The notes beneath the pieces are model-generated. The model was not told where the DNA came from. It did not search any database and saw nothing but the letters and a program-made list of their open reading frames with translations. The translations under genes and the position numbers were made by a program. A stretch of 24,673 nucleotides of DNA, taken from the IMG/VR virus record IMGVR_UViG_2585427758_000016, one strand, 5' to 3'. Origin of the DNA: a virus (lineage: Duplodnaviria > Heunggongvirae > Uroviricota > Caudoviricetes). Shown here in pieces: positions 3,895 through 23,034 of this stretch (its first letter is position 1; every line of letters starts with the position of its first letter).

Positions 3895-4165
3895 GATGTT
3901 ACCGTAGTATGTGAGTATCCATCGAATAGACACCAAGCAAAAAAGCTCCCGAAGGAGCCTTCATTTTCACTTTTTTAAATCCAACGACAGACGGCTGGCA
4001 TTTAAGTATTGTGAAATATTATCAAATGTAATCATCATTGATTTACAAAAGATACATTTTGCCCCGAAAGGATTCATGTCAGAAACATCAAAAGATGATG
4101 TTCTATACTGGGAACCATGACAACACGGGCATCTAAAGTGAATATGGTTTGTAATATTGTCTACC

Positions 4166-4378
4166 TCAAAGCGCCACTACATGAACAGCGGCAGGACCTT
4201 TAGGTCCGTTCTCAATACCAAATTCAACTTCCTGATTCTCAGTTAATGTTTTGAAATCGTTGCTCTGAATTGCTGAGAAATGGACAAACACATCTTTGCT
4301 GCCATCTTTCGGCGTGATGAAACCAAAACCTTTTTCAGGGTTAAACCATTTCACTAAACCAGTCATTTTGTTAGACAT
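4166..4378 (-). CDS. cspI: Cold-shock protein, CspI-like
   Basis: 70 aa [38 protein letters not shown]...; canonical cold-shock domain RNP1 (KGFGFI) and RNP2 (VFVHF) motifs; long AT-rich 5' leader upstream (4379-4700). Confidence 0.9.
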
Positions 4379-4739
4379 AATTATTACCTTTTGAAGAAAT
4401 TAGCCCTTGGGCAGAATGGTCCGAAAAAAATATCAGAGAGAAAAACCAACAAGGAAATCTCAAGAGGTACAAATAATAAAATTATAACAATGACTGCTTC
4501 AGATAAATTTGTAACAAACCAGAACACCATTAACGCATGATTAACCACCCATAGCAAGGATTACTTTTGTAAAGAAAAACACAGCAATGAAAGAATAGCT
4601 TTATTTATTAATAAAACGTGTCATTCTGATTAAGACCTTTTATCTTACCCTTAAGATTTCAGGAATTTTGGCTCATGGAAGAGTCCTTTTTATTTAAATT
4701 TTACATTCCGCGATGTAAATGTTCCGATTTAATATTACC

Positions 4740-6767: not shown

Positions 6768-7048
6768 GAGATTGTGGTGCTTTTTGTGGGAGTCATCCAC
6801 TTACGCACTTTGTTTTGCGATGCCAGCAGTTAGCTTCTGCTGTGAAACTATTCATGCAGCAAACCTGCACTTCACCACAATGGTTAGCATACTTTTCCTG
6901 ATTAAGATTTTGCCAAATATGCTGGCCATTGTTTCATGTATTGGACCTCCTTACTTTTTATTAAAGAGATCCAATATTCACTACTCTGTCCGTATCTCTA
7001 CTCAGGCATCAGCCTTCTTCGTTATCGTATACAGACGAGCGATGAATT

Positions 7049-7264
7049 TTAATCAGTAATGATGACATTTACTGCTGCAGGACCTTTAGCACCACTCTCT
7101 ATAGAGAAGGTAACCTTTTGACCTTCAAATAAGGTTCGATAATTATCATTCTGAATCGCAGAAAAATGCACAAACACATCTTTACTACCATCAACAGGAG
7201 AAATAAAGCCGAAACCTTTATCAGCGTTAAACCATTTTACTAAACCAGTCATTTTATTTGACAT
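7049..7264 (-). CDS. cspB: Cold-shock protein, CspB-like
   Basis: 71 aa [64 protein letters not shown]...; cold-shock domain with long 5' leader. Confidence 0.9.
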
Positions 7265-7574
7265 TCTACATTCCTTAACTTGAGCCTTTCGGCATAAATG
7301 GTTTGCATAACAGAAACGACTTCGTACTTAATTGGAGAGACTCAAAGAAGGAATAAGTGAATAACACCTGAAATGAGAACTGCTTTAGTAAACTACTTCG
7401 TATATCGTCTGTTCTTCAAACCGACGCAGTCATTAACTCATAGTTGAACATATGAAGCAATGTTTATTTTAGACATCCAGCCACCTTCAATCCTATCAAA
7501 AAAGTAGTTTTCTCCAGGAACGTGTGTATGGTGCACCAGGTTATCAGTATTAAGGAGTTTTTCTGTCCCCTAAA

Positions 7575-10358: not shown

Positions 10359-10610
10359 TTATTCTCCTGAAAAAGCAGAAAAGCCAGCTTTTATTCCGAT
10401 CTCTTTCAATGCCTGTAATGAAGTGACAAACTCACCTTCGCGCAAGATAAATCCGTCCGTGACCCGAGCATCCACAAAATTAATTAACGCAGCCCCATTC
10501 TTTCGCAAACACATAATGCGGTAATGACTAACAAGATTTCCATTTTCAACGCACACAGCATAGAGGCCATCTTCACAAAAAATTTTACGCAGTTCTTCGA
10601 TGTTCATCAT
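10359..10610 (-). CDS. rem: Rem-like protein
   Basis: 83 aa ORF in the position and of the length of Qin rem. Confidence 0.7.
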   Translation of the reverse strand: MMNIEELRKIFCEDGLYAVCVENGNLVSHYRIMCLRKNGAALINFVDARVTDGFILREGEFVTSLQALKEIGIKAGFSAFSGE

Positions 10611-10826: not shown

Positions 10827-10982
10827 TTACTCCTCAGGTTCGTAAGCTGTGAAGACAGCGACCTCCGTCTGGCCGGTTCGGATTCGTACCTCGCAGAGGT
10901 CTTTCCTCGTTACCAGTGCCGTCACTATGACGGTTAAACAGATGACGATCAGGGCGATTAACATCGCCTTTTGCTGCTTCAT
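10827..10982 (-). CDS. hokD: Hok-family membrane toxin HokD (RelF)
   Basis: Hand translation gives MKQQKAMLIALIVICLTVIVTALVTRKDLCEVRIRTGQTEVAVFTAYEPEE (51 aa), the Hok/Gef family signature; below the ORF-track size cutoff. Confidence 0.85.
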   Translation of the reverse strand: MKQQKAMLIALIVICLTVIVTALVTRKDLCEVRIRTGQTEVAVFTAYEPEE

Positions 10983-12533: not shown

Positions 12534-14407
12534 GTTAACATTACAAGATATAAGTAATGGACGCACTCCCAATTAGTCTATTTAAATCGCCACGAGTTTA
12601 ACTGACAACCCATGATCAATTATGAATTGCAACTATTTCTGTAGTCACTTTTGTGGGGACAGTCCACAAAACTGCCAACTTCCGCTTCTTGCTCTTAGCG
12701 GACATTAGCATAGGCTATTTACCATAACGTCTCATTACGCGCACCGCCCAGACTGACTCAGCGCGTTTCTGGCATATCCCCGGTAAAACAAGTAACAAAC
12801 CACCCGAAAATGAACACCAGAAACGCGACTTAAGAATCTACCCTATGAATGGATATGCACTCAACCGAATCGATCTTGGTTTCAATCTTTTTTATCGGGA
12901 TCAGGCTTCTTTTTAGGTAACTTCGGGGGCTTAACTTGCTGATGACTTTGCGTTCGGCGCGTAAGCCAGGGATGGTCAGCTTTAGGTTTAACATAGTATT
13001 TTGAGCGTAAATCAATACGGGCATTATCCACTCGTTCATGGACACTCTTTTCATCATCCAGTGGTATAGGCTCCGGGCCATCAACATACTTTTCCCAGCC
13101 CAGCGCTTTCCCGTCATACAGAACGTTAATTTCACCGTCAAAGTTCTCGCATACAGTAACAACCGAATGCCTAAGTCGATATCCCCGGCTCTCACTGCGT
13201 ACCTGAAACGCACTGCTTTTGTACTGGAAAGTGAGATTTTTAGACAGAACGCGCTTCGCCTGTAGGCTGAAGATATAACCCAGTTCCTCTTCAGAATGGT
13301 GCACATCAAGATGAGCATTATCAGTAGTACGAGGCGACGTAGCGAACCGGTTGTTATAGGCTTCAATAAAGGTCGGCAACCATGCATTTGCTGTTTCAAT
13401 ATCACTGATATTCTGAAGCCGCATTTCTTTGACCAGCCTGTCCTGTAGTGTCTGATTGGCGCGCTCTACCCGCCCTTTTGCCTGCGGGCTGTTGGCATGG
13501 ATTGGCTCGATGCCCAGTGTCTTTATCGCACGAGTGAACTGGGTCAGCTCACCTTCCCGCTCTGGGTTATTTACCCTGAATATACTGTGTCTATCAGAGT
13601 AGAGAGCGAGCGGTACGCCATGATCATTAAGGTAACCCCGGAGGGTTTCCATGTAAGCCCGGGTTGTTTCAGCAGGCACAAAACGCAACGCCATCAACGC
13701 ACTGGTGGCATCATCAATGAAAACGATCAGTGTACATCTGGGGCCTCGATTTTCAAACCAGTCATGAGGTGAGCCATCAATCTGGATCAGTTCACCGTAA
13801 GATGGTCGTCGCATGCGGCGTTGATATATACGGGCAATTTTACGACGGCGTTCACGCCATAACCCCTCTTCTATCATCCACTTTCTGAGAGTTTCAACGG
13901 ATAAAGATAAACCGTGTATCTCGCGCAATTTTTCGCACGCAAACGTAGGTCCAAAATCAGCGTAACGGCCTTTGAGGAGTGAAATTACTGTTGCTCTGAA
14001 TTCAGTAGAAAAGGAATTATTAGGACGCTTTCCACGTCGGTGGGAAACCAGACCAGAAGGCCCTTCATTTCTATACCGTTGCACCAGACGTTTAACCTGC
14101 CGAATAGAAATGCCAATGCGTGCCGCAGCTTGTTCCTGAGTAATATGTCGATTAATTGACTCCTGAATAATCTGAAGTCGGTGGAGTTCCTTATGACTCA
14201 TCGTAACAGTCTCTTTGATCATGAAAAATCCCCCAGAGAATTGTCTGGGGACATTTTAGAATGGTTCAAAGGGGACATTACAGCTTGGTGTTAACAATAG
14301 CCTGCTTCTCCGTGCCTTTCGGCACGTAAGAGGCTAACCTACATGTGTCTAGCATGAAATTGGCCTCAGATTAATGTTAAGCGTCTTGCAGGACGCGTAA
14401 TGTTAAC
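12534..14407 (-). mobile_element. Putative insertion sequence carrying one DDE transposase gene (IS481-family-like); boundaries tentative
   Basis: Single transposase ORF flanked by non-coding DNA; only candidate terminal inverted repeat I could find by eye is gttaacattac (12534-12544) versus gtaatgttaac (14397-14407). No direct repeats confirmed. Confidence 0.3.
12882..14222 (-). CDS. DDE transposase with N-terminal HTH and rve integrase-core domain
   Basis: 446 aa; N-terminal HTH region (TQEQAAARIGISIRQVKRLVQRY), catalytic-triad candidates in QIDGS, YSDRHSIF and GRVERANQTLQDRL with a basic residue seven positions after the Glu; Lys/Pro-rich C-terminal tail. Confidence 0.8.
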   Translation of the reverse strand: MIKETVTMSHKELHRLQIIQESINRHITQEQAAARIGISIRQVKRLVQRYRNEGPSGLVSHRRGKRPNNSFSTEFRATVISLLKGRYADFGPTFACEKLREIHGLSLSVETLRKWMIEEGLWRERRRKIARIYQRRMRRPSYGELIQIDGSPHDWFENRGPRCTLIVFIDDATSALMALRFVPAETTRAYMETLRGYLNDHGVPLALYSDRHSIFRVNNPEREGELTQFTRAIKTLGIEPIHANSPQAKGRVERANQTLQDRLVKEMRLQNISDIETANAWLPTFIEAYNNRFATSPRTTDNAHLDVHHSEEELGYIFSLQAKRVLSKNLTFQYKSSAFQVRSESRGYRLRHSVVTVCENFDGEINVLYDGKALGWEKYVDGPEPIPLDDEKSVHERVDNARIDLRSKYYVKPKADHPWLTRRTQSHQQVKPPKLPKKKPDPDKKD

Positions 14408-15887
14408 TGGGGCTTTTCTCTATCTGCCGTTGGTGTCCATGCCCGAGGCAGATAGCCTCAAGCACCCGCAGTCATTCTACTTAACTAAGATTTCCCCGCA
14501 AACCGTTTTTGTCCAGCACAGTAAATATCCAACTAAACCAATGGAGTTCGCTGTATTTACCGCCAGTATTCAATGCACATGACCGCCATGAACACCCCTA
14601 AAAAAAGGGCATTTATATATCCAAATATTAATATCAAAACATCAACTTTTTCCATATACCTTGCTGTGAAGATGATGGGCATACATGATGCGAACAACCA
14701 GAACGCAACAAACAAAAACTGCAATGCGTTTTTCATTATTCCTCCTACAATCAATGTGCAATTACATTTAAACACACCTCAATTTGGCCGGACATATAAA
14801 TATCTAAACCAGAAAAAATCACTTACATAGCGTTACAAACTCTTTAGTCTAAAGGTTCATCGTAAAACATTCCCCATACTTATCAGTCCGTTCCGCGCCA
14901 GGTAGCTCATTGCCTTATCTGGCAACCTGTAATCAGGTTTCCGCTTTTTCAGTTGGCTGGTCGTTTAACCGACATAGTTAATCCATTAATCTAGTTGCCG
15001 GATGTTGGTGGATTTTCGCGTTTTAGTTGTTCATAAAAGTGCACAGCTTTAACCAGTTCTTCTGATGTAACCGGGACTGGTGAGGCAGTGAATAAGGCCT
15101 GAATTTGATAGTTCGGCCTGTCGTTACAATCCTCTTTTTTCGGTACATATTTCCAGTCACCAGACCACTACTTCCCCTGAAAGTCCGTAACGCTTTTTTC
15201 ACGTAGCGATATCGCCATGCCACTGGTTTTGCTTGCCCCGCCGTTTCATGCCCTTCCTGATAATTAATCTCGCTCATTCATCGCCCCACTCATCACAATA
15301 TGCTTCGACCGGAGTTTTTCCCGCTTCATAGTCATCACGCTAGGATTCGACATCAGCAGCACTTCCACCGCGTAATTCACCATAGTCCATTAATAGTTCA
15401 TCCCGCTCTTCAAAACTGATGTTATATTTAGCTGAACAAAAATCAGCCACTTTGTTCTTCCTCATCGTCTTTTATTTCGTGGTATGAGTAATTGCAGTAG
15501 TTAAAGAAAATTTCTTATGCTCCGTCATGAATTTCATCAGGTGTTGCGTCATCGTCCACTTCGAATACATCCTCAAAATCTCCACCAGCTATTTCCGTTT
15601 CAATAATAATTTTGAACTTTCGCATTTCACTACCGCCCTTTCGGGCGGCCTCCTGATGTTCTGAGGGTGCAGAAATCCATCCGGTTAAGGATTAAGTTTT
15701 ATTTACAGAACTGAATTTAATTATTCAGATATACGTATCTGTAACCTTACGAATCTACTCACTGGATGCCTCTTTCATAAAAATAATCCAGTGGGTTTTA
15801 TCGTTTTTTCCCTGTTCGTTGACAGATAACAGGCTTTCTATCTGTCAGTGCCAGAATCTGGCTTACCGGTATTTGCGTTTCATTCCA

Positions 15888-16244
15888 TTAAAAAATCAGA
15901 ACGCCGTGCGGCCTCAACACCCGAAAAGCTTCTTTAAATCTCTGTCGCAAATCATCACGCCAGGCATCTTTATTCAGCCGTCCATATTTCTTTCCCATCC
16001 AGGCGTTATCACCAACACGCTCAAGATGCGGAGGGTCTAATACAACCATCGAAAAAGATGCGTCTGCAAATGATAATGCACGAAAATCTGCGATAATGTC
16101 AGGGCTGATAATCAAGCGTCTCCCATTGCGTAATGTGTATCCTTCTTTTCTGATATCGCTGAATATCGCCCGTTTGTCAGACTTATCGAACCAGAACATG
16201 CGGCTGCCACAGCACATATCAAGAATGGTTGCCGGTGCACTCAC
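15888..16244 (-). CDS. DNA methyltransferase N-terminal region (AdoMet-binding DMCCGS motif and DPPH motif IV); probably truncated
   Basis: 118 aa ORF with a DxxxGxG-like SAM motif and DPPH; ends about 45 residues after motif IV with no continuation in any minus frame, so a C-terminal domain appears missing. Confidence 0.5.
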   Translation of the reverse strand: MSAPATILDMCCGSRMFWFDKSDKRAIFSDIRKEGYTLRNGRRLIISPDIIADFRALSFADASFSMVVLDPPHLERVGDNAWMGKKYGRLNKDAWRDDLRQRFKEAFRVLRPHGVLIF

Positions 16245-16663
16245 TGCGCCACGTCCTGAAAATTACCCTGATAGAAAGCCAGTATGCGCTGCATAACTTC
16301 GCTCTTCCGGCACTCGCGACAGATTATGTTTAGGCGACTGTCGTAGCGACGTATTTCTCCGTCAGGTGATGACCAGATAAGGTCCGGATCAACCACAGCA
16401 GGTTTCTTCACCTTTGCCCTCGAGAGTTTTTTGCGGGCGTTTTGCCAGTCCTTACGCGCCTGTTCAGAGGGGAATAACCCGTAGCCGGAGTTGTATACAT
16501 CGCCACTGGCTACCAGCTCTCTGGCAAGAACGCTCATCAGATATCTAGTCGCACCTGTTTTAGCTTCCAGTTGCCGTAACGTCTCACGGCCGCTCTGGCG
16601 CACGAGTTCCACCACCTGCCATTTAATTTTTTCCCGCTCTTCTTGTGTAAAAACTTTTGCCAC
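16241..16663 (-). CDS. Hypothetical protein (140 aa), early-operon gene downstream of the replication gene
   Basis: Protein-like composition; translationally coupled to the methyltransferase fragment (stop/start overlap); no family recognised. Confidence 0.5.
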   Translation of the reverse strand: MAKVFTQEEREKIKWQVVELVRQSGRETLRQLEAKTGATRYLMSVLARELVASGDVYNSGYGLFPSEQARKDWQNARKKLSRAKVKKPAVVDPDLIWSSPDGEIRRYDSRLNIICRECRKSEVMQRILAFYQGNFQDVAQ

Positions 16664-16703: not shown

Positions 16704-17723
16704 TTATCCTCTGAAACCAGGCGGAATTTCTGTATCCGGTTCAGAAATATGATTAACACAACGCTGTACAGGTGAACGTCCCAGGCGGATGACCAGTTCG
16801 TCCCATTTTTCGCGGAGCTTTGACGGGCTCATGATGTTTTTTACCCAGAATGGATCTCGCTGAACCCGACCAAACATTTCGCAAATTTGTCTGTGGCTTC
16901 TGCCATCCAGCATCCGCATTGTGCGCACGTCATTGGCCCAGGCAGTCCAGTTAGGCTCTTTTGGTCGCATGATCTCGCCATCATCACTGGCTGCCTGTTC
17001 GTAGAGACCCACGATCCGCCCCCAGATCCACTGCGCACACGCCAAATCCTCCCTGCTACCCCACTGGCGTTTTTTCGCACTAAACACAACCGCGTCGGAG
17101 TTCCGGGTTAAAGAATCCTGTTCAGTCGTCTGCGGGTCCGGTTGCGAAGCTTCCGGACGAAAAGTGTTTTTATTCTCTGTAGTAATCTCTGTTGTATTCT
17201 CTGTAAGATCATCAGGCCATTTTGACCCGATGACATTGGGTCGTTTTGAACCAATGGAGCGTTTCATTTTGACCTCTTCCATCGTGTCATTTTGACCTGA
17301 TGGAGCGGCGCATTTTGAACCGATGGATTCGCTCAATTTGCCACCATCTAAAAGCTCGCTCCCATAGTTGATCGTGTAGAAATTGGTCATATCGCGCTTT
17401 GATTTATTGAGCTTTTCACAACGCAAAAGCCCCAGCGTTTTCAGACTTGCAAACGCGCGCTTTAACGTTGACTCTGACCAGAATGGGAACTGTTCAAGCC
17501 ATTGTTCCGTTGTGTTATAAATCCAGCGAACACCATCACATTCCATGCCGGAGTTGGTATCTCTCAACCAGTAGTGCAGTTGTTGCAAAACAATGGCTTC
17601 GTTTAAGCCAATTTTCATTGCCAGCTGCGTGTTTATAACCAGTGGGCGTTCAGCAAAAAGAAGGCTCATAATTCCATCCAGCTTTTTGTTGGTATTGCTG
17701 TCGATACGCAAGCTTGAAAGCAA
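16704..17723 (-). CDS. Phage replication initiation protein (lambda O-like, iterons inside the gene)
   Basis: 339 aa; N-terminal winged-helix-like region (INTQLAMKIGLNEAIVLQQLHYWL), a central repetitive linker encoded by DNA iterons, and a conserved-looking C-terminal domain; follows the cro-like gene in the rightward early operon. Start may be the internal Met at 17669. Confidence 0.65.
   Translation of the reverse strand: MLSSLRIDSNTNKKLDGIMSLLFAERPLVINTQLAMKIGLNEAIVLQQLHYWLRDTNSGMECDGVRWIYNTTEQWLEQFPFWSESTLKRAFASLKTLGLLRCEKLNKSKRDMTNFYTINYGSELLDGGKLSESIGSKCAAPSGQNDTMEEVKMKRSIGSKRPNVIGSKWPDDLTENTTEITTENKNTFRPEASQPDPQTTEQDSLTRNSDAVVFSAKKRQWGSREDLACAQWIWGRIVGLYEQAASDDGEIMRPKEPNWTAWANDVRTMRMLDGRSHRQICEMFGRVQRDPFWVKNIMSPSKLREKWDELVIRLGRSPVQRCVNHISEPDTEIPPGFRG
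17160..17350. repeat. Putative replication origin: five to six ~20-bp iterons (core ATTTTGA(A/C)C...GATGG) plus an adjacent triplicated ATTCTCTGT motif
   Basis: Direct repeats cattttgacccgatg / ttttgaaccaatgg / cattttgacctc / cattttgacctgatgg / cattttgaaccgatgg / caatttgccacc at 17217-17348, preceded by tattctctgta-gtaatctctgt-tgtattctctgta at 17171-17205. Confidence 0.55.
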
Positions 17724-18171
17724 TTGCTTTTTCTATAAGTTCGTCAGTTTCACGATCCACTACGGCAGGATCAGCAAAAAGCAGTCCGGACTCCACCACA
17801 TCGCCATATTCTTTGTTTAACCCGGCGATCATGCACGTGATGCTTTTTCCGTCAGTAATTTCACGATACAACCTGAAATCACTAATCCGGATAGCCTCCA
17901 TAATCGCAGGCACTAGCGCCGTGAACTTTTCACGCTTATCCCTGGTGTCGATAGCCTTCCAGCGTTCGAATATCTTCACTCGATTAACACCAAGCGCTCG
18001 CTGATCAACCGCGCCACCTTCATCTGTGACACGCTGAACATCGATGTTCGGGCGCTCTTTCAAAGCCCAGAATGCTTCAGTGATTAATATCGTCGCCTGC
18101 TCCTGTGTCATTCCTGGTCGACATATCCAGGCATCCAGAGCCTCACGAGCCTGTTCAGGAGTGATTTTCAT
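17650..18171 (-). CDS. Hypothetical early protein (173 aa) between the cro-like gene and the replication gene
   Basis: Protein-like ORF overlapping dicC by 17 nt at its start and the O-like ORF at its end; occupies the cII-equivalent position; no family recognised. Confidence 0.5.
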   Translation of the reverse strand: MKITPEQAREALDAWICRPGMTQEQATILITEAFWALKERPNIDVQRVTDEGGAVDQRALGVNRVKIFERWKAIDTRDKREKFTALVPAIMEAIRISDFRLYREITDGKSITCMIAGLNKEYGDVVESGLLFADPAVVDRETDELIEKAIAFKLAYRQQYQQKAGWNYEPSFC

Positions 18172-18385
18172 TGTTCAACCGCCCCGCCCGCTTCGTCTTA
18201 CGATATTCATCATAAACTTTGGGATCATACTGAAGCTCCCCGCCAGATGCCTCCTGTAGACGCATCGCGCGACCTTCAGGAACCAGTATCCCCCAAGCAG
18301 CAACACTTGCCAGCCTCACTCCTGCGGCATTGGCAAGCTTTGTTTTGCTGCCAAAAAAAGTAATTGCGTCAACTTTAAGCATCAA
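18155..18385 (-). CDS. dicC: Cro-like regulator DicC
   Basis: 76 aa; ...FGSKTKLANAAGVRLASVAAWG...PEGRAMRLQEASGGELQYDPKVYDEYRKTKRAGRL resembles K-12 DicC as recalled; divergent from the repressor gene. Confidence 0.85.
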   Translation of the reverse strand: MMLKVDAITFFGSKTKLANAAGVRLASVAAWGILVPEGRAMRLQEASGGELQYDPKVYDEYRKTKRAGRLNNENHS

Positions 18386-18396
18386 AGCCCCCTCTT

Positions 18397-18413
18397 GTTA
18401 GACTTTTCTAACA
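18397..18413. promoter_or_regulatory. Operator palindrome in the dicC-dicA divergent promoter region (TGTTAGA-n4-TCTAACA)
   Basis: tgttagacttttctaaca; 7-bp inverted arms with a 4-bp spacer, centred in the 77-bp intergenic region. Confidence 0.6.
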
Positions 18414-18462
18414 TTATTGTGCGCGGGATACCTAAGTCAAGAAAAATTAGAATTACCTAACT

Positions 18463-18870
18463 ATGGATACAAGAACCCTGGGCCAGCGAGTTCTGGCGCG
18501 ACGAAAAGAATTACGCTTAACACAACGAGAAGCCGCGCGCCTCGCTGGAGTTGCTCACGTCACAATTTCACAATGGGAAAGAGACGAAACCCAGCCAGTC
18601 GGAAAACGATTGTTTGCTTTAGCGGATGCTCTGAAGTGCTCACCTACATGGCTAATGTTTGGTGACGAAGACAAGGCACCAGTGCCTGCACAAGAACTTC
18701 ATGTGGAAACAGAGCTAACTCCCAACCACAAAGAATTGATCGAATTATTCGATGCTCTTCCATCTTCCGAGCAGGAAGCCTTGCTGTCTGAAATGCGCGC
18801 AAGAGTAGAAAACTTCAACAAACTCTTCGAAGAAATGCTTAAAGCGCGTAAAAATAAATCAATAAAATAA
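18463..18870 (+). CDS. dicA: Prophage repressor DicA (HTH_XRE family)
   Basis: 135 aa; HTH region LTQREAARLAGVAHVTISQWERDETQP and a C-terminus (...LFDALPSSEQEALLSEMRARVENFNKLFEEMLKARK) resembling K-12 DicA as recalled. Confidence 0.9.
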   Translation: MDTRTLGQRVLARRKELRLTQREAARLAGVAHVTISQWERDETQPVGKRLFALADALKCSPTWLMFGDEDKAPVPAQELHVETELTPNHKELIELFDALPSSEQEALLSEMRARVENFNKLFEEMLKARKNKSIK

Positions 18871-18902
18871 CATTCTTTTCAAGTGATTAGTTGCGCCCAC
18901 CC

Positions 18903-18959
18903 TTTTTGTTAGATCAATCTAACAAAAAACACTTGCCTCTCATGTTAGGTTATTCTAAA
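18903..18959. promoter_or_regulatory. Operator palindromes downstream of dicA (candidate promoter/operator of the ydfA-dicB operon)
   Basis: Perfect palindrome TTTTTGTTAGA-tcaa-TCTAACAAAAA at 18903-18928 and a weaker related site tgttaggttattctaaa at 18943-18959; same half-site as the dicC-dicA operator. Confidence 0.55.
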
Positions 18960-19038
18960 TTATTTTCCATCAAGACACCGCACGGTGTTCTCAGCAAACA
19001 GTTCCGCTACCCCGGCGTTAAGGGGAAATGAGGTCAGC

Positions 19039-19194
19039 ATGGATACTATCGATCTTGGCAACAGCGAATCTCTGGTATGTGGCGTGTTCCCCAACCAGGA
19101 CGGTACGTTCACCGCGATGACGTATACCAAAAGCAAAACGTTTAAAACCGAAAATGGTGCCCGTCGCTGGCTGGAAAGAAACCCAGGTGAGTGA
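19039..19194 (+). CDS. ydfA: YdfA-like small protein (DUF1391)
   Basis: 51 aa from the internal Met: MDTIDLGNSESLVCGVFPNQDGTFTAMTYTKSKTFKTENGARRW...; RBS aggggaaatgagg upstream. Confidence 0.75.
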   Translation: MDTIDLGNSESLVCGVFPNQDGTFTAMTYTKSKTFKTENGARRWLERNPGE

Positions 19195-19195
19195 T

Positions 19196-19324
19196 ATGGA
19201 TTTCGACACAATCATGGAAAAGGCTTACGAAGAATACTTCGAAGGTCTTGCCGACGGCGAAGAAGCTCTCAGCTTCAACGAATTTAAACAGGCGCTTTCC
19301 AGTTCGGCAAAATCTAACGGCTGA
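19196..19324 (+). CDS. ydfB: YdfB-like small protein (42 aa)
   Basis: Hand translation: MDFDTIMEKAYEEYFEGLADGEEALSFNEFKQALSSSAKSNG; below the ORF-track cutoff. Confidence 0.75.
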   Translation: MDFDTIMEKAYEEYFEGLADGEEALSFNEFKQALSSSAKSNG

Positions 19325-19353
19325 TAAGCGAAACAGCACCGCGAGGAATCAGT

Positions 19354-19572
19354 ATGCAGAAACGAGAACCCGTCATCATCGCGCCAGACTATACCGATGA
19401 TGAACTTTATGAGTGGATGCGCCAGAAAATTAATGCAGCGCAGGATTTGAAATGGGCCAATGAAACCAGGGCTAAGCAGGCTGAAAATCTGTCCGCTCTG
19501 GAGCAGGATATCACCAATCTGGAAAAAGCAGCGGCATTAAGCATTGCCAGAATGATTACATACCCGCGTTAG
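19354..19572 (+). CDS. ydfC: YdfC-like protein
   Basis: 72 aa ORF following ydfB; MQKREPVIIAPDYTDDELYEWMRQKINAAQDLKW... Confidence 0.8.
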   Translation: MQKREPVIIAPDYTDDELYEWMRQKINAAQDLKWANETRAKQAENLSALEQDITNLEKAAALSIARMITYPR

Positions 19573-19912
19573 TAGCTAATCAACAAAGCTAAGGTTAGTA
19601 ATTAAGGAGTTCTCCACGGGTGAGGTGGAGTGCGTGCGCCGGACACGGGTGAGCATCCGGCACTGACAGTTTACTGAAAGGATATTTCCCTGAAAAGTCA
19701 GACCATAACGCGAAAGCGCACGGCGAGGTAGCTGGTTCATAGATAGCCTGTCGTTAAATTTTCGTCGACCGTGCGCTTCCGGTTGTGGCAACCCGCGAAA
19801 TGGCGCGGCGGTAAGTATGGCGGGGTTATTCCTTCCCCGTTGAGGACACCGGGTTGTCAGGTTGACCATACGCTTAAGTGACAACCCCGCTGCAACGCCC
19901 TCTGTTATCAAT

Positions 19913-19970
19913 TTTCTGGTGACGTTTGGCGGTATCAGTTTTACTCCGTGACTGCTCTGCCGCCCTTTTT
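19913..19970 (+). ncRNA. dicF: DicF small RNA (ftsZ-targeting antisense sRNA) with its intrinsic terminator
   Basis: tttctggtgacgtttggcggtatcagttttactccgtgactgctctgccgcccttttt matches DicF as I recall it, including the ggcgg...ccgcc terminator stem and U-tail; lies between ydfC and dicB. Confidence 0.8.
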
Positions 19971-20139
19971 AAAGTGAATTTTGTGATGTGGTGAATGCGG
20001 CTGAGCGCACGCGGAACAGTTAAAACCAAAAACAGTGTTATGGGTGGATTCTCTGTATCCGGCGTTAATTGTTAACTGGTTAACGTCACCTGGAGGCACC
20101 AGGCACTGCATCACAAAATTCATTGTTGAGGACGCGATA

Positions 20140-20328
20140 ATGAAAACGTTATTACCAAACGTTAATACGTCTGAAGGTTGTTTTGAAATTGGTGTCACTA
20201 TCAGTAACCCAGTATTTACTGAAGATGCCATTAACAAGAGAAAACAAGAACGGGAGCTATTAAATAAAATATGCATTGTTTCAATGCTGGCTCGTTTACG
20301 TCTGATGCCAAAAGGATGTGCACAATGA
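20140..20328 (+). CDS. dicB: Cell-division inhibitor DicB
   Basis: 62 aa from the internal Met: MKTLLPNVNTSEGCFEIGVTISNPVFTEDAINKRKQERELLNKICIVSMLARLRLMPKGCAQ. Confidence 0.9.
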   Translation: MKTLLPNVNTSEGCFEIGVTISNPVFTEDAINKRKQERELLNKICIVSMLARLRLMPKGCAQ

Positions 20329-20516
20329 ATTCAGCATTTGTGCTTGTTCTGACAGTTTTTCTTGTTTCCGGAGAGCCAGTTGATATTGCAGTCAGTGTGC
20401 ACAGGACAATGCAGGAGTGTATGACTGCAGCAACCGAACAGAAAATTCCCGGTAACTGTTACCCGGTCGATAAAGTTATTCACCAGGATAATATCGAAAT
20501 CCCGGCAGGTCTTTAA
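20325..20516 (+). CDS. ydfD: YdfD-like small membrane (lysis-associated) protein
   Basis: 63 aa MNSAFVLVLTVFLVSGEPVDIAVSVHRTMQECMTAATEQKIPGNCYPVDKVIHQDNIEIPAGL; hydrophobic N-terminus; start overlaps the dicB stop (ATGA). Confidence 0.8.
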   Translation: MNSAFVLVLTVFLVSGEPVDIAVSVHRTMQECMTAATEQKIPGNCYPVDKVIHQDNIEIPAGL

Positions 20517-20609: not shown

Positions 20610-20867
20610 ATGAGTAAAGTCTTTATTTGCGCCGCTATTCCTGACGAACTGGCAACAAGGGAAGAAGGCGCTGTGGCTGTAGCCACAGCCATTGAAGCTG
20701 GCGACGAACGCCGTGCTCGAGCAAAATTTCACTGGCAGTTCCTGGAACATTATCCGGCTGCTCAGGACTGCGCTTATAAATTTATTGTCTGCGAGGATAA
20801 ACCTGGCATACCCCGCCCTGCCCTCGATTCATGGGATGCTGAATATGCAGGAAAACCGCTGGGATGA
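20610..20867 (+). CDS. Hypothetical protein (85 aa) upstream of the exonuclease
   Basis: ORF with an SD-like gaggt upstream; its 3' end overlaps the start region of the large exonuclease ORF in another frame. Confidence 0.45.
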   Translation: MSKVFICAAIPDELATREEGAVAVATAIEAGDERRARAKFHWQFLEHYPAAQDCAYKFIVCEDKPGIPRPALDSWDAEYAGKPLG

Positions 20868-23034
20868 GGAGTCTGCTTCTTTTGTCCCGGTTGAGACTGA
20901 ATCCGATCCGATGAACGTCACTTTTGACAAGCTGGCCCCTGAAGTACAGAACGCTGTCATGGTTAAGTTCGACACATGTGAAAACATCACCGTTGATATG
21001 GTTATTAGCGCACAGGAATTGTTGCAGGAAGACATGGCAACATTCGACGGACATATCGTTGAAGCGTTGATGAAAATGCCAGAAGTTAACGCCATGTATC
21101 CGGAGCTTAAGTTGCACGCCATTGGGTGGGTTAAGCATAAATGTATTCCTGGTGCTAAATGGCCCGAAATTCAGGCAGAGATGCGCATCTGGAAAAAACG
21201 TCGCGAAGGTGAACGCAAGGAAACCGGAAAATACACGTCTGTTGTTGATCTCGCCCGCGCCAGAACCAATCAACAGTACACTGAAAATTCAACAGGAAAA
21301 ATCAGCCCGGTCATTGCTGCCATTCATCGCGAATACAAGCAGACATGGAAAACACTGGATGACGAACTGGCCTACGCTCTCTGGCCTGGTGATGTGGATG
21401 CCGGAAACATTGACGGCAGCATCCATCGCTGGGCAAAAAAAGAAGTTATCGACAACGACCGCGAAGACTGGAAGCGTATCTCGGCATCAATGCGCAAACA
21501 GCCTGATGCCCTTCGCTACGACCGCCAGACTATTTTTGGCCTTGTCCGTGAGCGTCCGATCGACATTCACAAAGATCCCATAGCACTGAACAAATATATC
21601 TGCGAATACCTGACGACAAAGGGCGTGTTTGAGAATGAAGAAACAGACCTGGGCACTGTTGATGTTCCCCAGTCATCAGAAACACAAACTGATGCAGTGG
21701 AAACTGAGGTATCTGATATCCCAAAAAATGAAACCGCGCCGGAAGCTGAACCATCTGTAGAGCGTGAGGGGCCGTTCTATTTCCTCTTCGCAGATAAGGA
21801 CGGAGAAAAATACGGTCGCGCAAACAAACTTTCTGGTCTGGATAAGGCACTGGCTGCTGGCGCCACTGAAATCACAAAAGAAGAATATTTTGCCCGAAAA
21901 AATGGCACATACACGGGCTTACCGCAAAATGTAGATACCGCTGAAGATTCAGAACAACCAGAGCCGATAAAAGTTACCGCTGACGAAGTAAACAAAATTA
22001 TGCAGGCAGCCAATATCAGCCAGCCTGACGCCGATAAGTTGCTTGCTGCATCACGTGGTGAATTTGTTGAAGGGATTAGTGACCCGAATGATCCGAAATG
22101 GGTTAAGGGGATCCAGACCCGCGATTCTGTGAACCAGAACCAGCATGAATCGGAACGGAACTACCAAAAAGCGGAACAAAACAGCACAAATGCGTTACAA
22201 AACGAGCCAGAAACGAAACAGCCTGAACCAGTGGCGCAACTGGAAGTGGAAAAAGTCTGCACCGCCTGCGGTCAGACCGGCGGCGGCAACTGCCCTGATT
22301 GTGGCGCGGTGATGGGCGACGCAACATACCAGGAAACATTCGATGAAGAGTATCAGGTTGAAGTTCAGGAAGATGATCTGGAGGAAATGGAAGGCGCTGA
22401 ACATCCACACAAGGAGAACACTGGCGGCAATCAGCATCACAATAGCGATAATGAAACTGGCGAGACGGCAGATCACTCAATTAAGGTGAACGGTCATCAC
22501 GAAATCACATCCACCAGCAGGACGTGTGACCATCTAATGATCGACCTTGAAACCATGGGAAAAAATCCTGATGCCCCGATCATCTCAATAGGTGCAATAT
22601 TTTTCGATCTGGAAACTGCTGGCGGAGTCATTGATCGGGACACCATTAAATGGTGGCTTAAGCAATCACGCGAAGCGCAATCTGCCATTATGACCGATGA
22701 AATCCCGTTAGATGATGCACTGTTACAATTGCGGGAATTTATCGACGAAAACTCCGGTGAATTTTTTGTTCAGGTTTGGGGAAATGGAGCCAACTTCGAC
22801 AACACGATTTTGCGCCGTTCATACGAACGGCAGGGGATCCCCTGCCCGTGGCGTTACTACAACGATCGCGATGTACGCACAATCGTTGAGCTGGGGAAAG
22901 CCATAGACTTCGATGCCAGAACGGCTATTCCATTCGAAGGTGAGCGCCATAATGCACTTGATGACGCCCGTTACCAGGCAAAATACGTTTCAGTTATCTG
23001 GCAAAAACTGATCCCGAGTCAGGCTGATTCTTAA
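20836..23034 (+). CDS. Large prophage exonuclease: long N-terminal region, acidic linker with a CxxC...CxxC motif, and C-terminal DEDDh (DnaQ-like) 3'-5' exonuclease domain
   Basis: The ORF opens at 20692 but the first ~48 codons overlap the preceding gene and look non-native; likely start is MLNMQENRWDEE at 20836 or the Met at 20845. C-terminus shows Exo I (MIDLETMG), Exo II (WGNGANFDNTIL) and Exo III (HNALDDARYQAKY) motifs; occupies the exo/recE slot of the early-left operon. Confidence 0.8.
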   Translation: MLNMQENRWDEESASFVPVETESDPMNVTFDKLAPEVQNAVMVKFDTCENITVDMVISAQELLQEDMATFDGHIVEALMKMPEVNAMYPELKLHAIGWVKHKCIPGAKWPEIQAEMRIWKKRREGERKETGKYTSVVDLARARTNQQYTENSTGKISPVIAAIHREYKQTWKTLDDELAYALWPGDVDAGNIDGSIHRWAKKEVIDNDREDWKRISASMRKQPDALRYDRQTIFGLVRERPIDIHKDPIALNKYICEYLTTKGVFENEETDLGTVDVPQSSETQTDAVETEVSDIPKNETAPEAEPSVEREGPFYFLFADKDGEKYGRANKLSGLDKALAAGATEITKEEYFARKNGTYTGLPQNVDTAEDSEQPEPIKVTADEVNKIMQAANISQPDADKLLAASRGEFVEGISDPNDPKWVKGIQTRDSVNQNQHESERNYQKAEQNSTNALQNEPETKQPEPVAQLEVEKVCTACGQTGGGNCPDCGAVMGDATYQETFDEEYQVEVQEDDLEEMEGAEHPHKENTGGNQHHNSDNETGETADHSIKVNGHHEITSTSRTCDHLMIDLETMGKNPDAPIISIGAIFFDLETAGGVIDRDTIKWWLKQSREAQSAIMTDEIPLDDALLQLREFIDENSGEFFVQVWGNGANFDNTILRRSYERQGIPCPWRYYNDRDVRTIVELGKAIDFDARTAIPFEGERHNALDDARYQAKYVSVIWQKLIPSQADS

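Follow-up and report, generated by a model that had tools for sequence, protein, structure and literature searches.

Four putative repressor-binding sites arranged two and two around dicA in the immunity switch of a Qin-type Escherichia coli prophage

Introduction

The closest described relative of the locus analysed here is the Qin (Kim) cryptic prophage of Escherichia coli K-12 (Bejar et al. 1986, 1988; Yun et al. 2012, PMC3441716; Ragunathan et al. 2023, PMC10448788), in which DicA and DicC act as a bistable switch (PMC10448788). K-12 DicA binds sequence-specifically in vivo to a 20-bp inverted repeat, Oc, which overlaps the dicC -10 element; a single A-to-C change in Oc abolishes binding, and transcription of dicA requires DicA, which also represses dicC (PMC3441716). 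Two other proposed sites, the middle site Om and Oa, went unbound by K-12 DicA in vivo, according to data that the authors mention but do not show (PMC3441716). The promoter of the dicB operon, dicBp, is derepressed 22-fold by deletion of dicA and 165-fold by the antirepressor Rem, and induction is brought about by Rem, heat, urea or noise, not by SOS (PMC10448788). In 1988 Bejar et al., as cited in PMC10448788, put forward three operators for each region. The K-12 dicA mRNA has a 3-nt leader, its transcription start site (TSS) lying 3 nt before the ATG (PMC4681348, Table S3).

Two further points of comparison are the immC region of phage P22 and the cI/cro switch of phage lambda. The operator core of P22 is TTAAG. 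The P22 repressor, c2, makes its operator contacts at the outer bases and none at the central 4 bp (PMC4267663).

Here we analyse a stretch of 24,673 nucleotides (IMG/VR virus record IMGVR_UViG_2585427758_000016; hereafter the window), for which an original prediction made from the letters alone had proposed a DicA/DicC switch with three operator palindromes. The idea of DicA/DicC operators is not new, as the system is known and the window holds a diverged but common allele of it. By analogy with K-12, the locus is very likely a Qin-type immunity switch with four repressor-binding sites, two on either side of dicA.

Results and discussion

Locus identity and gene content

The window is an E. 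coli Qin-type cryptic (lambdoid) prophage carrying the DicA/DicC immunity switch. RefSeq places the locus in the Qin prophage, adjoining rspB/ynfA; a 1.3-kb region of it is 100% identical in many E. coli chromosomes, and at least 80% of this region is carried by 539 of the 5,426 complete E. coli genomes (~10%). Searches against NCBIfam, Pfam and Rfam bear out the gene assignments originally made for dicA, dicC, ydfA, DicF and dicB, and the genes of the switch, its antirepressor and its controlled operon are as follows.

10362..10610, minus strand: rem, antirepressor gene (tblastn, 100% identity over 83 aa to K-12 Rem)
18155..18382, minus strand: dicC, Cro analogue, 75 aa (NCBIfam NF007282, 165.7 bits, cut-off 130; Pfam P22_Cro)
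18463..18870, plus strand: dicA, short CI-type repressor, 135 aa (NCBIfam NF007257, 224.7 bits, cut-off 101)
19039..20516, plus strand: controlled operon ydfA-ydfB-ydfC-DicF-dicB-ydfD (Pfam, Rfam and RefSeq annotation of the identical locus)
19039-19194, plus strand: ydfA (Pfam DUF1391)
19196-19324, plus strand: ydfB
19354-19572, plus strand: ydfC
19914-19965, plus strand: DicF RNA (Rfam, 76.7 bits)
20140-20328, plus strand: dicB (Pfam DicB, 137 bits)
20325-20516, plus strand: ydfD

DicC is homologous to P22 Cro (structure 1rzs). The NF007257 match spans residues 1-134 of the 135 in DicA, which is therefore a full-length member of that family, and residues 1-71 match the N-terminal domain of P22 c2 (1adr, 2r1j; E = 1e-18). 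Pfam finds HTH_3 alone in the 135-aa protein and no match to a Peptidase_S24 domain; DicA thus resembles c2 at the DNA level, yet it is not a full member of the c2/LexA-like family. With only HTH domains detected in the repressor and rem present in the same prophage, the locus has the make-up of a non-SOS repressor with a cognate antirepressor gene.

Comparison with the K-12 Qin allele

Consistent with its assignment to the Qin type, the locus shares with K-12 a chromosomal prophage location, the gene order (ydaT-like gene, then dicC and dicA diverging, then ydfABC-dicF-dicB-ydfD), the placement of the dicC promoter, the ATG context CTAACTATG, an identical Rem gene and near-identical flanking DNA. 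The divergent dicC-dicA intergenic region is also of similar length, at ~80 bp (18383-18462) against 83 bp in K-12. Pairwise alignment to K-12 Qin is a mosaic, identical to ~18277, diverged thereafter and near-identical again from 18976, and so delimits one further feature.

18278..18975, no strand: diverged immunity module, 700 bp, ~60% identical to K-12

This module jointly holds the DicC HTH, all four sites described below, dicA and the dicB-operon promoter. DicA is 56% identical to its K-12 counterpart, and DicC differs from that of K-12 only in its first 33 aa, which contain the HTH. Within the diverged module, the operator arms, the dicC -35 and the dicBp -35 stand out as conserved islands. 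The four positions are also occupied by sites in K-12, namely Oc (TTGTTAGTcataACTAACAA), Oa (TTTAGCattaGCTAACT) at the ATG, and TGTTAGCtataGCATACA and TGTTAGTcatgGCTAATC after dicA, and the two alleles have in common the outer core TTGTTAG...CTAAC(AA). They differ in that site 2 is a perfect palindrome here and degenerate in K-12 (TGTTAGCtataGCATACA), in that the K-12 'Om' sequence is absent here, and in that the early-right genes (a ydaT-like gene and a replication-protein-like ORF) are intact here and reduced to the remnants ydfX/ydfW in K-12.

Four palindromic sites flank dicA

The three palindromes of the original prediction are all present in the sequence, but the number of sites is four, in a 2 + 2 arrangement, the one at 18445-18462 having been missed. 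Being palindromic, the sites are listed without strand.

18395..18414: site 1, homologue of K-12 Oc, TTGTTAGActttTCTAACAt; overlaps the edge of the dicC promoter -10 and the start site
18445..18462: site 1b, homologue of K-12 'Oa', AATTAGAattaCCTAACT; AATTAGA-atta-CCTAACT, ending at the dicA ATG (18463)
18903..18928: site 2, perfect 26-bp palindrome, TTTTTGTTAGATcaATCTAACAAAAA; just upstream of the dicBp -35
18943..18960: site 3, weaker, TGTTAGGttatTCTAAAT; TGTTAGG-ttat-TCTAAAT, within the dicBp spacer and -10

The core of site 1, TGTTAGA-cttt-TCTAACA (18396-18413), has the 7-bp arms TGTTAGA-n4-TCTAACA that had been predicted, with the start coordinate then off by one (it is 18396). Site 1 differs at one position from TTGTTAG-N6-CTAACAA, aligns with K-12 Oc TTGTTAGTCATAACTAACAA and abuts or overlaps the predicted -10 (18413-18418), giving the window a 20-bp inverted repeat over the dicC -10 element. 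Site 2 had been rightly recognised as a perfect palindrome but credited with 11-bp arms; a repeat search gives arms of 12 nt, TTTTTGTTAGAT and ATCTAACAAAAA, with 100% complementarity around a 2-nt centre, and the match to TTGTTAG-N6-CTAACAA is without mismatch. The weaker third site had been placed downstream of dicA, as found for site 3, which lies 36 bp from site 2 centre to centre. Site 1b and inverted site 3 are alike at 16 of 20 positions, spacer included, and neither has the outer TTG/CAA that marks sites 1 and 2.

The motif scan of the whole prophage that had been suggested for TTAGA-N4-TCTAA, allowing at most one mismatch, returned exactly four matches in 24,673 bp (starts 18398, 18447, 18909 and 18945), all of them within 561 bp and against 0.63 expected from shuffles; a count of four was reached by 2 of 100 shuffles. 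No further operator was found at this threshold elsewhere in the 24.7-kb window, and at two mismatches the pattern is uninformative (10 found, 10.8 expected). The segment 16174-16193 was considered as an extra operator and rejected, its 3-mismatch match to the long motif being within chance expectation. There is no full middle operator corresponding to K-12 'Om'; a conserved half-site, CCTAAG, stands alone beside the dicC -35.

Promoter-like elements overlap the sites

Three promoters are placed in the region, as follows.

18413..18440, minus strand: predicted dicC promoter (dicCp), -35 TTGACT (18440-18435), 16-nt spacer, -10 AATAAT (18418-18413)
18448-18453, plus strand: -10 (TAGAAT) of the dicA promoter, inside site 1b, with the start at ~18460
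18933..18961, plus strand: dicBp, placed by homology, -35 TTGCCT (18933-18938), 17-nt spacer, -10 TAAATT (18956-18961)

The dicC promoter is the only sigma-70 consensus match in the region (10 of 12 positions), with a predicted TSS at ~18406 on the minus strand, and the K-12 dicC promoter is in the same place, its 5' end having been mapped by 5'RACE (PMC3441716). The sequence AGTCAAG in the dicC -35 region is conserved in all alleles. For dicA, the K-12 TSS 3 nt before the ATG puts the -10 hexamer TAGAAT inside site 1b, which thereby overlaps both this element and the start of a near-leaderless dicA mRNA; no Shine-Dalgarno sequence is visible ahead of dicA. As the predicted starts are divergent and only ~54 bp apart, dicCp and the dicA promoter overlap.

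The dicB-operon promoter aligns with the K-12 element TTGACC-17-TAATCT, is conserved across 55 unique sequences and was missed by the consensus scan because only 8 of its 12 positions match; homology would put its TSS at ~18968. The K-12 dicBp-lacZ fragment, as defined by its primers, is 113 bp long, begins 2 nt beyond the dicA stop and extends to ...TGCATCAACACACCGCACGG, and the K-12 in-locus fusion junction falls just past TTGACC-17-TAATCT, such that fragment and junction bracket exactly this element. The counterpart of the fragment in the window, 18871-18986, holds sites 2 and 3, centred at about -52.5 and -16.5 relative to dicBp. By homology, then, an operator-bearing dicBp directly after dicA would drive ydfABC-dicF-dicB. 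A leftward promoter built on the minus-strand TAGAAT of site 3 was considered and rejected on inspection, for lack of an acceptable -35.

Conservation of the sites and covariation with the recognition helix

We compared 21 loci from species-representative genomes and ~200 from IMG/VR, a sample dominated by closely related E. coli prophages. The search pattern for sites was TTAG-N6-CTAA, a single mismatch being tolerated, and did not include the flanking TTG and CA(A). Loci in which the DicA helix reads HV[TS][IV]SQWE were found in Escherichia, Citrobacter, Enterobacter, Symbiopectobacterium and Rahnella, and every locus of this SQWE class has TTAG-N6-CTAA centred at -58/-59 and at -8/-9 from the dicA ATG, plus a further such site between +79 and +137 relative to the dicA stop. 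Most also have a distal downstream site, the homologue of site 2, centred ~+45 to +50 after the dicA stop, which is too degenerate to score in K-12-type loci and in two others (L010 and L097). Spacing is tightly kept: the Oc-Oa distance is 49 bp in 55 and 50 bp in 5 of 60 unique loci, and the downstream pair is separated by 35-37 bp (56 unique loci).

The outer TTG and CA(A) are near-invariant, being present in 19 of 20 distinct variants of site 1 and 17 of 18 of site 2, while the inner six differ between loci, the 'A' of TTAGA among them (A, G or T). Conserved outer bases around a variable inner six give the motif TTGTTAG-N6-CTAACAA, and it is this rather than the originally proposed 'TTAGA' that is the conserved determinant. 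The combination of conserved arms and variable centre matches the contact pattern of the P22 repressor (PMC4267663). We also considered the 'A' of TTAGA as the determinant separating this allele from K-12 (T or C) and rejected it, as A, G or T occurs within one helix class; the sequence comparison suggests that K-12 and the present allele probably share DicA specificity.

Different recognition helices are accompanied by different operators at the same positions, SLWES-type helices pairing with TTGTTGAG... or ATTGAG-N4-CTCAAT and FKWEN-type helices with ATAACT..AGTTAT. When the 20-mer at the Oc position was compared with the region after dicA, the agreement was 14.8 of 20 positions inside a single locus, 14.1 between loci of one class and 11.8 between classes. 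This fixed-coordinate test replaced a best-palindrome/6-mer count, which picked the wrong palindromes in several loci.

Alternative readings of the sites

The alternative that survives best, although we consider it unlikely, is that only sites 1 and 2 are DicA operators and that sites 1b and 3 are chiefly promoter -10 elements, or else operators preferred by DicC. K-12 DicA did not bind Oa in vivo (PMC3441716), so site 1b may not be a DicA site at all. Site 1b holds TAGAAT at the correct distance from a K-12-type start, and all specificity classes have a -10-like hexamer 6-9 nt ahead of the ATG, irrespective of their operator sequences. The 16/20 agreement between site 1b and inverted site 3, together with their missing outer TTG/CAA, points the same way, as does the near-identity of Oa in two classes that have different DicA helices but similar DicC helices (SAVSQW). 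Against this, sites 1b and 3 are still TTAG-N6-CTAA palindromes, each at a constant distance from its strong neighbour, and the Oa of other classes departs from the Oc core of the same class by a single mismatch in each half-site, as expected of a weak operator of that kind. In lambda and P22, Cro and repressor bind common operators. Finally, an operator in the dicBp spacer is what one would expect of a promoter under DicA repression, as dicBp is in K-12 (PMC10448788).

A more elaborate proposal, which we hold to be more doubtful still, is that the sites are written in two dialects, the symmetric TTGTTAG-N6-CTAACAA of sites 1 and 2 being read by DicA and an asymmetric class being preferred by DicC. 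The asymmetric class, TTAGAAT(T/A)ACCTAAC, would consist of site 1b and inverted site 3, which lie on the -10s of dicA and dicBp. If this were true, DicC and not DicA would shut off dicA and would later damp the toxic dicB operon.

It is very improbable that the site 2 palindrome is instead an RNA hairpin serving as terminator or stabiliser of the dicA transcript. The palindrome does fold as an 11-bp stem (region MFE -16.2 kcal/mol, z = -2.0), and the scan for intrinsic terminators predicted none between dicA and dicBp or between dicA and ydfA, leaving the interval without another candidate. However, no U-tract follows the stem and the terminator scan does not call site 2 itself; the K-12 homologue is an imperfect palindrome; and in related loci changes in the inner stem are uncompensated (TTAGACCAATCTAA, TTAGTTTTATCTAA) while the outer half-sites are fixed, which is the signature of DNA half-sites and not of a helix. 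That AT-rich intergenic DNA has produced the palindromes by chance is hardly credible, for although the short pattern is at chance level when two mismatches are allowed, the four matches against 0.63 expected are clustered in 561 bp, position and sequence are conserved across genera, the palindromes covary with the repressor helix, and binding to the K-12 counterpart is experimental (PMC3441716).

A model for the switch

The preferred reading, with four repressor-binding sites, combines two kinds of evidence: the sites, their positions relative to genes and promoter-like elements, their conservation and their covariation are observed here, and DicA-Oc binding, repression of dicC and dicBp, the dicA start and the action of Rem are taken by analogy from the K-12 orthologue, for which alone they have been demonstrated. 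We posit that DicA is a dimeric repressor that reads TTGTTAG-N6-CTAACAA through its P22 c2-like HTH. The strong pair would be site 1, at the dicCp start, and site 2, a short way ahead of the dicB-operon promoter; the other two would probably be weaker, site 1b over the dicA -10 and start and site 3 between the dicBp -35 and -10. On the analogy of K-12 Oa, site 3 might be a weak operator or one that depends on site 2; the strengths given to the sites, the proteins assigned to 1b and 3 and any cooperativity are deductions.

With DicA present, dicCp would be blocked at site 1 and dicBp at sites 2 and 3, such that ydfABC-DicF-DicB-YdfD would be silent, while dicA would stay on. The -35 regions of dicCp and the dicA promoter would interdigitate, and shut-off of dicCp probably frees the weak dicA promoter; promoter overlap would thus be a simple alternative account of the dicA 'auto-activation' reported in K-12. 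Loss of DicA, through the Rem antirepressor, heat or urea, or stochastically, would allow DicC to be made, and DicC would repress dicA, probably at site 1b, and lock the opposite state. The original proposal that one repressor both autoregulates the switch and gates the ydfA-dicF-dicB operon is in keeping with this model, supported as it is by the K-12 Qin experiments and, by analogy, the conserved sites.

Relation to the P22 and lambda switches

The arrangement is close to that of P22 immC: the N-domain of c2 and P22 Cro have sequence homologues in the N-domain of DicA and in DicC, the two genes are divergent with operators over both promoters, and the leftward early promoter, beyond the repressor gene, has an operator set of its own. 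The A/T-rich, variable operator centre parallels the contact pattern of P22 (PMC4267663). Unlike P22 c2, DicA has only 135 aa; its short C-terminal domain is unrelated, and the S24 peptidase/RecA-cleavage domain is missing. Induction of K-12 Qin is by Rem, heat, urea or noise and not by SOS (PMC10448788). There are moreover two recognisable sites per promoter region here and three in P22, and the DicA-type operator core is TTAG.

The lambda cI/cro switch is alike in topology and logic, in the leaderless or near-leaderless repressor mRNA (shown for K-12 dicA; PMC4681348), and in a repressor that represses the cro-type gene and is required for its own transcription (for DicA, in K-12). It differs in that the operators have no sequence homology, in that the repressor and cro-type starts are predicted to lie ~54 bp apart here with overlapping promoters, and in that the DicA system has no sign of OR2-type contact activation.

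Conclusions

The result mainly confirms that a textbook-style prophage switch is recoverable from raw sequence, and the account of how the toxic dicF/dicB operon is silenced is unchanged. Beyond the single locus, the 2 + 2 layout and the extended motif are conserved across enterobacterial DicA-type prophages and covary with the recognition helix. The same operator core and the same Rem, despite 56% DicA identity, suggest that Qin-type repressors may cross-react, and diverged DicA alleles with an identical Rem could thus cross-regulate several Qin-like prophages in one cell.

Operator-like sequences in and around the switch

The putative operator abutting the start codon of dicA (site 1b, the homologue of K-12 Oa) resembles one of the two putative operators at dicBp, the promoter of the ydfA-dicF-dicB operon: when site 3 (18941-18960) is reverse-complemented, it shares 16 of 20 positions, spacer included, with site 1b (18444-18463). 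The same pairing was recovered in an inverted-repeat search (23 nt, 83%), and a similar but weaker tendency is seen in the Citrobacter and K-12 alleles; the SGSSISLWES allele does not show the resemblance. The 16/20 agreement is not accounted for by constraints on the promoters.

Two further operator-like sequences were noted, one of them within the switch:

18421-18436, GC-rich block GCGCGGGATA with the operator-like half-site CCTAAG, adjoining the dicC -35
16174-16193, TTGTCAGACTTATCGAACCA, the long operator motif (TTGTTAG-N6-CTAACAA) with three mismatches

The block beside the dicC -35 is kept in alleles of the SQWE class, one of the classes defined by the DicA recognition helix, and the half-site at this position differs by specificity class (CTCAAG, CTTAAG, AGTTAT). 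It may be the remnant of a middle operator. The match at 16174-16193 lies within chance expectation (1.3 expected; at least three matches in 17 of 100 shuffles).

The stretch from the dicA stop codon to the ydfA operon (18870-19039) contains no predicted intrinsic terminator. Conceivably, DicA bound at sites 2 and 3 could act as a roadblock that keeps transcription started at the dicA promoter from running on into the toxic operon.

Genes flanking the switch

Intact early-right genes follow downstream of dicC, whereas in the K-12 Qin prophage they are reduced to the ydfX/ydfW remnants:

17650-18171 (-), YdaT-family protein of 173 aa, its gene overlapping the dicC stop by 17 nt
16704-17723 (-), ORF of 339 aa (321-aa hypothetical protein in RefSeq), which may encode a replication protein
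16241-16663 (-), DUF977 protein

DicA, the presumed target of the antirepressor Rem, shares only 56% identity with its K-12 counterpart, in contrast to the complete identity of Rem; hokD, relE, ydfU and ydfT are likewise 99-100% identical.

10362-10610 (-), rem antirepressor gene, 100% identity to K-12 Rem
14296-14467 (-), sok antitoxin RNA (Rfam, 104 bits)
4139-4523 (-) and 7002-7425 (-), cspA-type thermoregulator 5' UTRs (Rfam RF01766, 114 and 159 bits)
20692-23034 (+), seemingly intact 780-aa ORF after ydfD

The sok match lies ~3.4 kb from the hokD homologue (10830-10982), implying that the prophage carries a second module of the hok/sok type, and the two 5' UTRs are probably those of cspI and cspB, cold-shock genes of the prophage. 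Counterparts of the 780-aa ORF are disrupted elsewhere: the gene, for a 3'-5' exoribonuclease domain protein, is frameshifted in strain 17MR471, and ydfE is an IS2-interrupted pseudogene in K-12.

DicA-type repressors in phages

Short DicA-type repressors with 52-66% identity are present in phage genome records, for example mEp460, Cronobacter phiES15, PPompW and Klebsiella ST405-OXA48phi1.2. Given these occurrences, at least one of them (phiES15) in a UV-induced prophage, the DicA-type repressor family is probably not limited to cryptic prophages.
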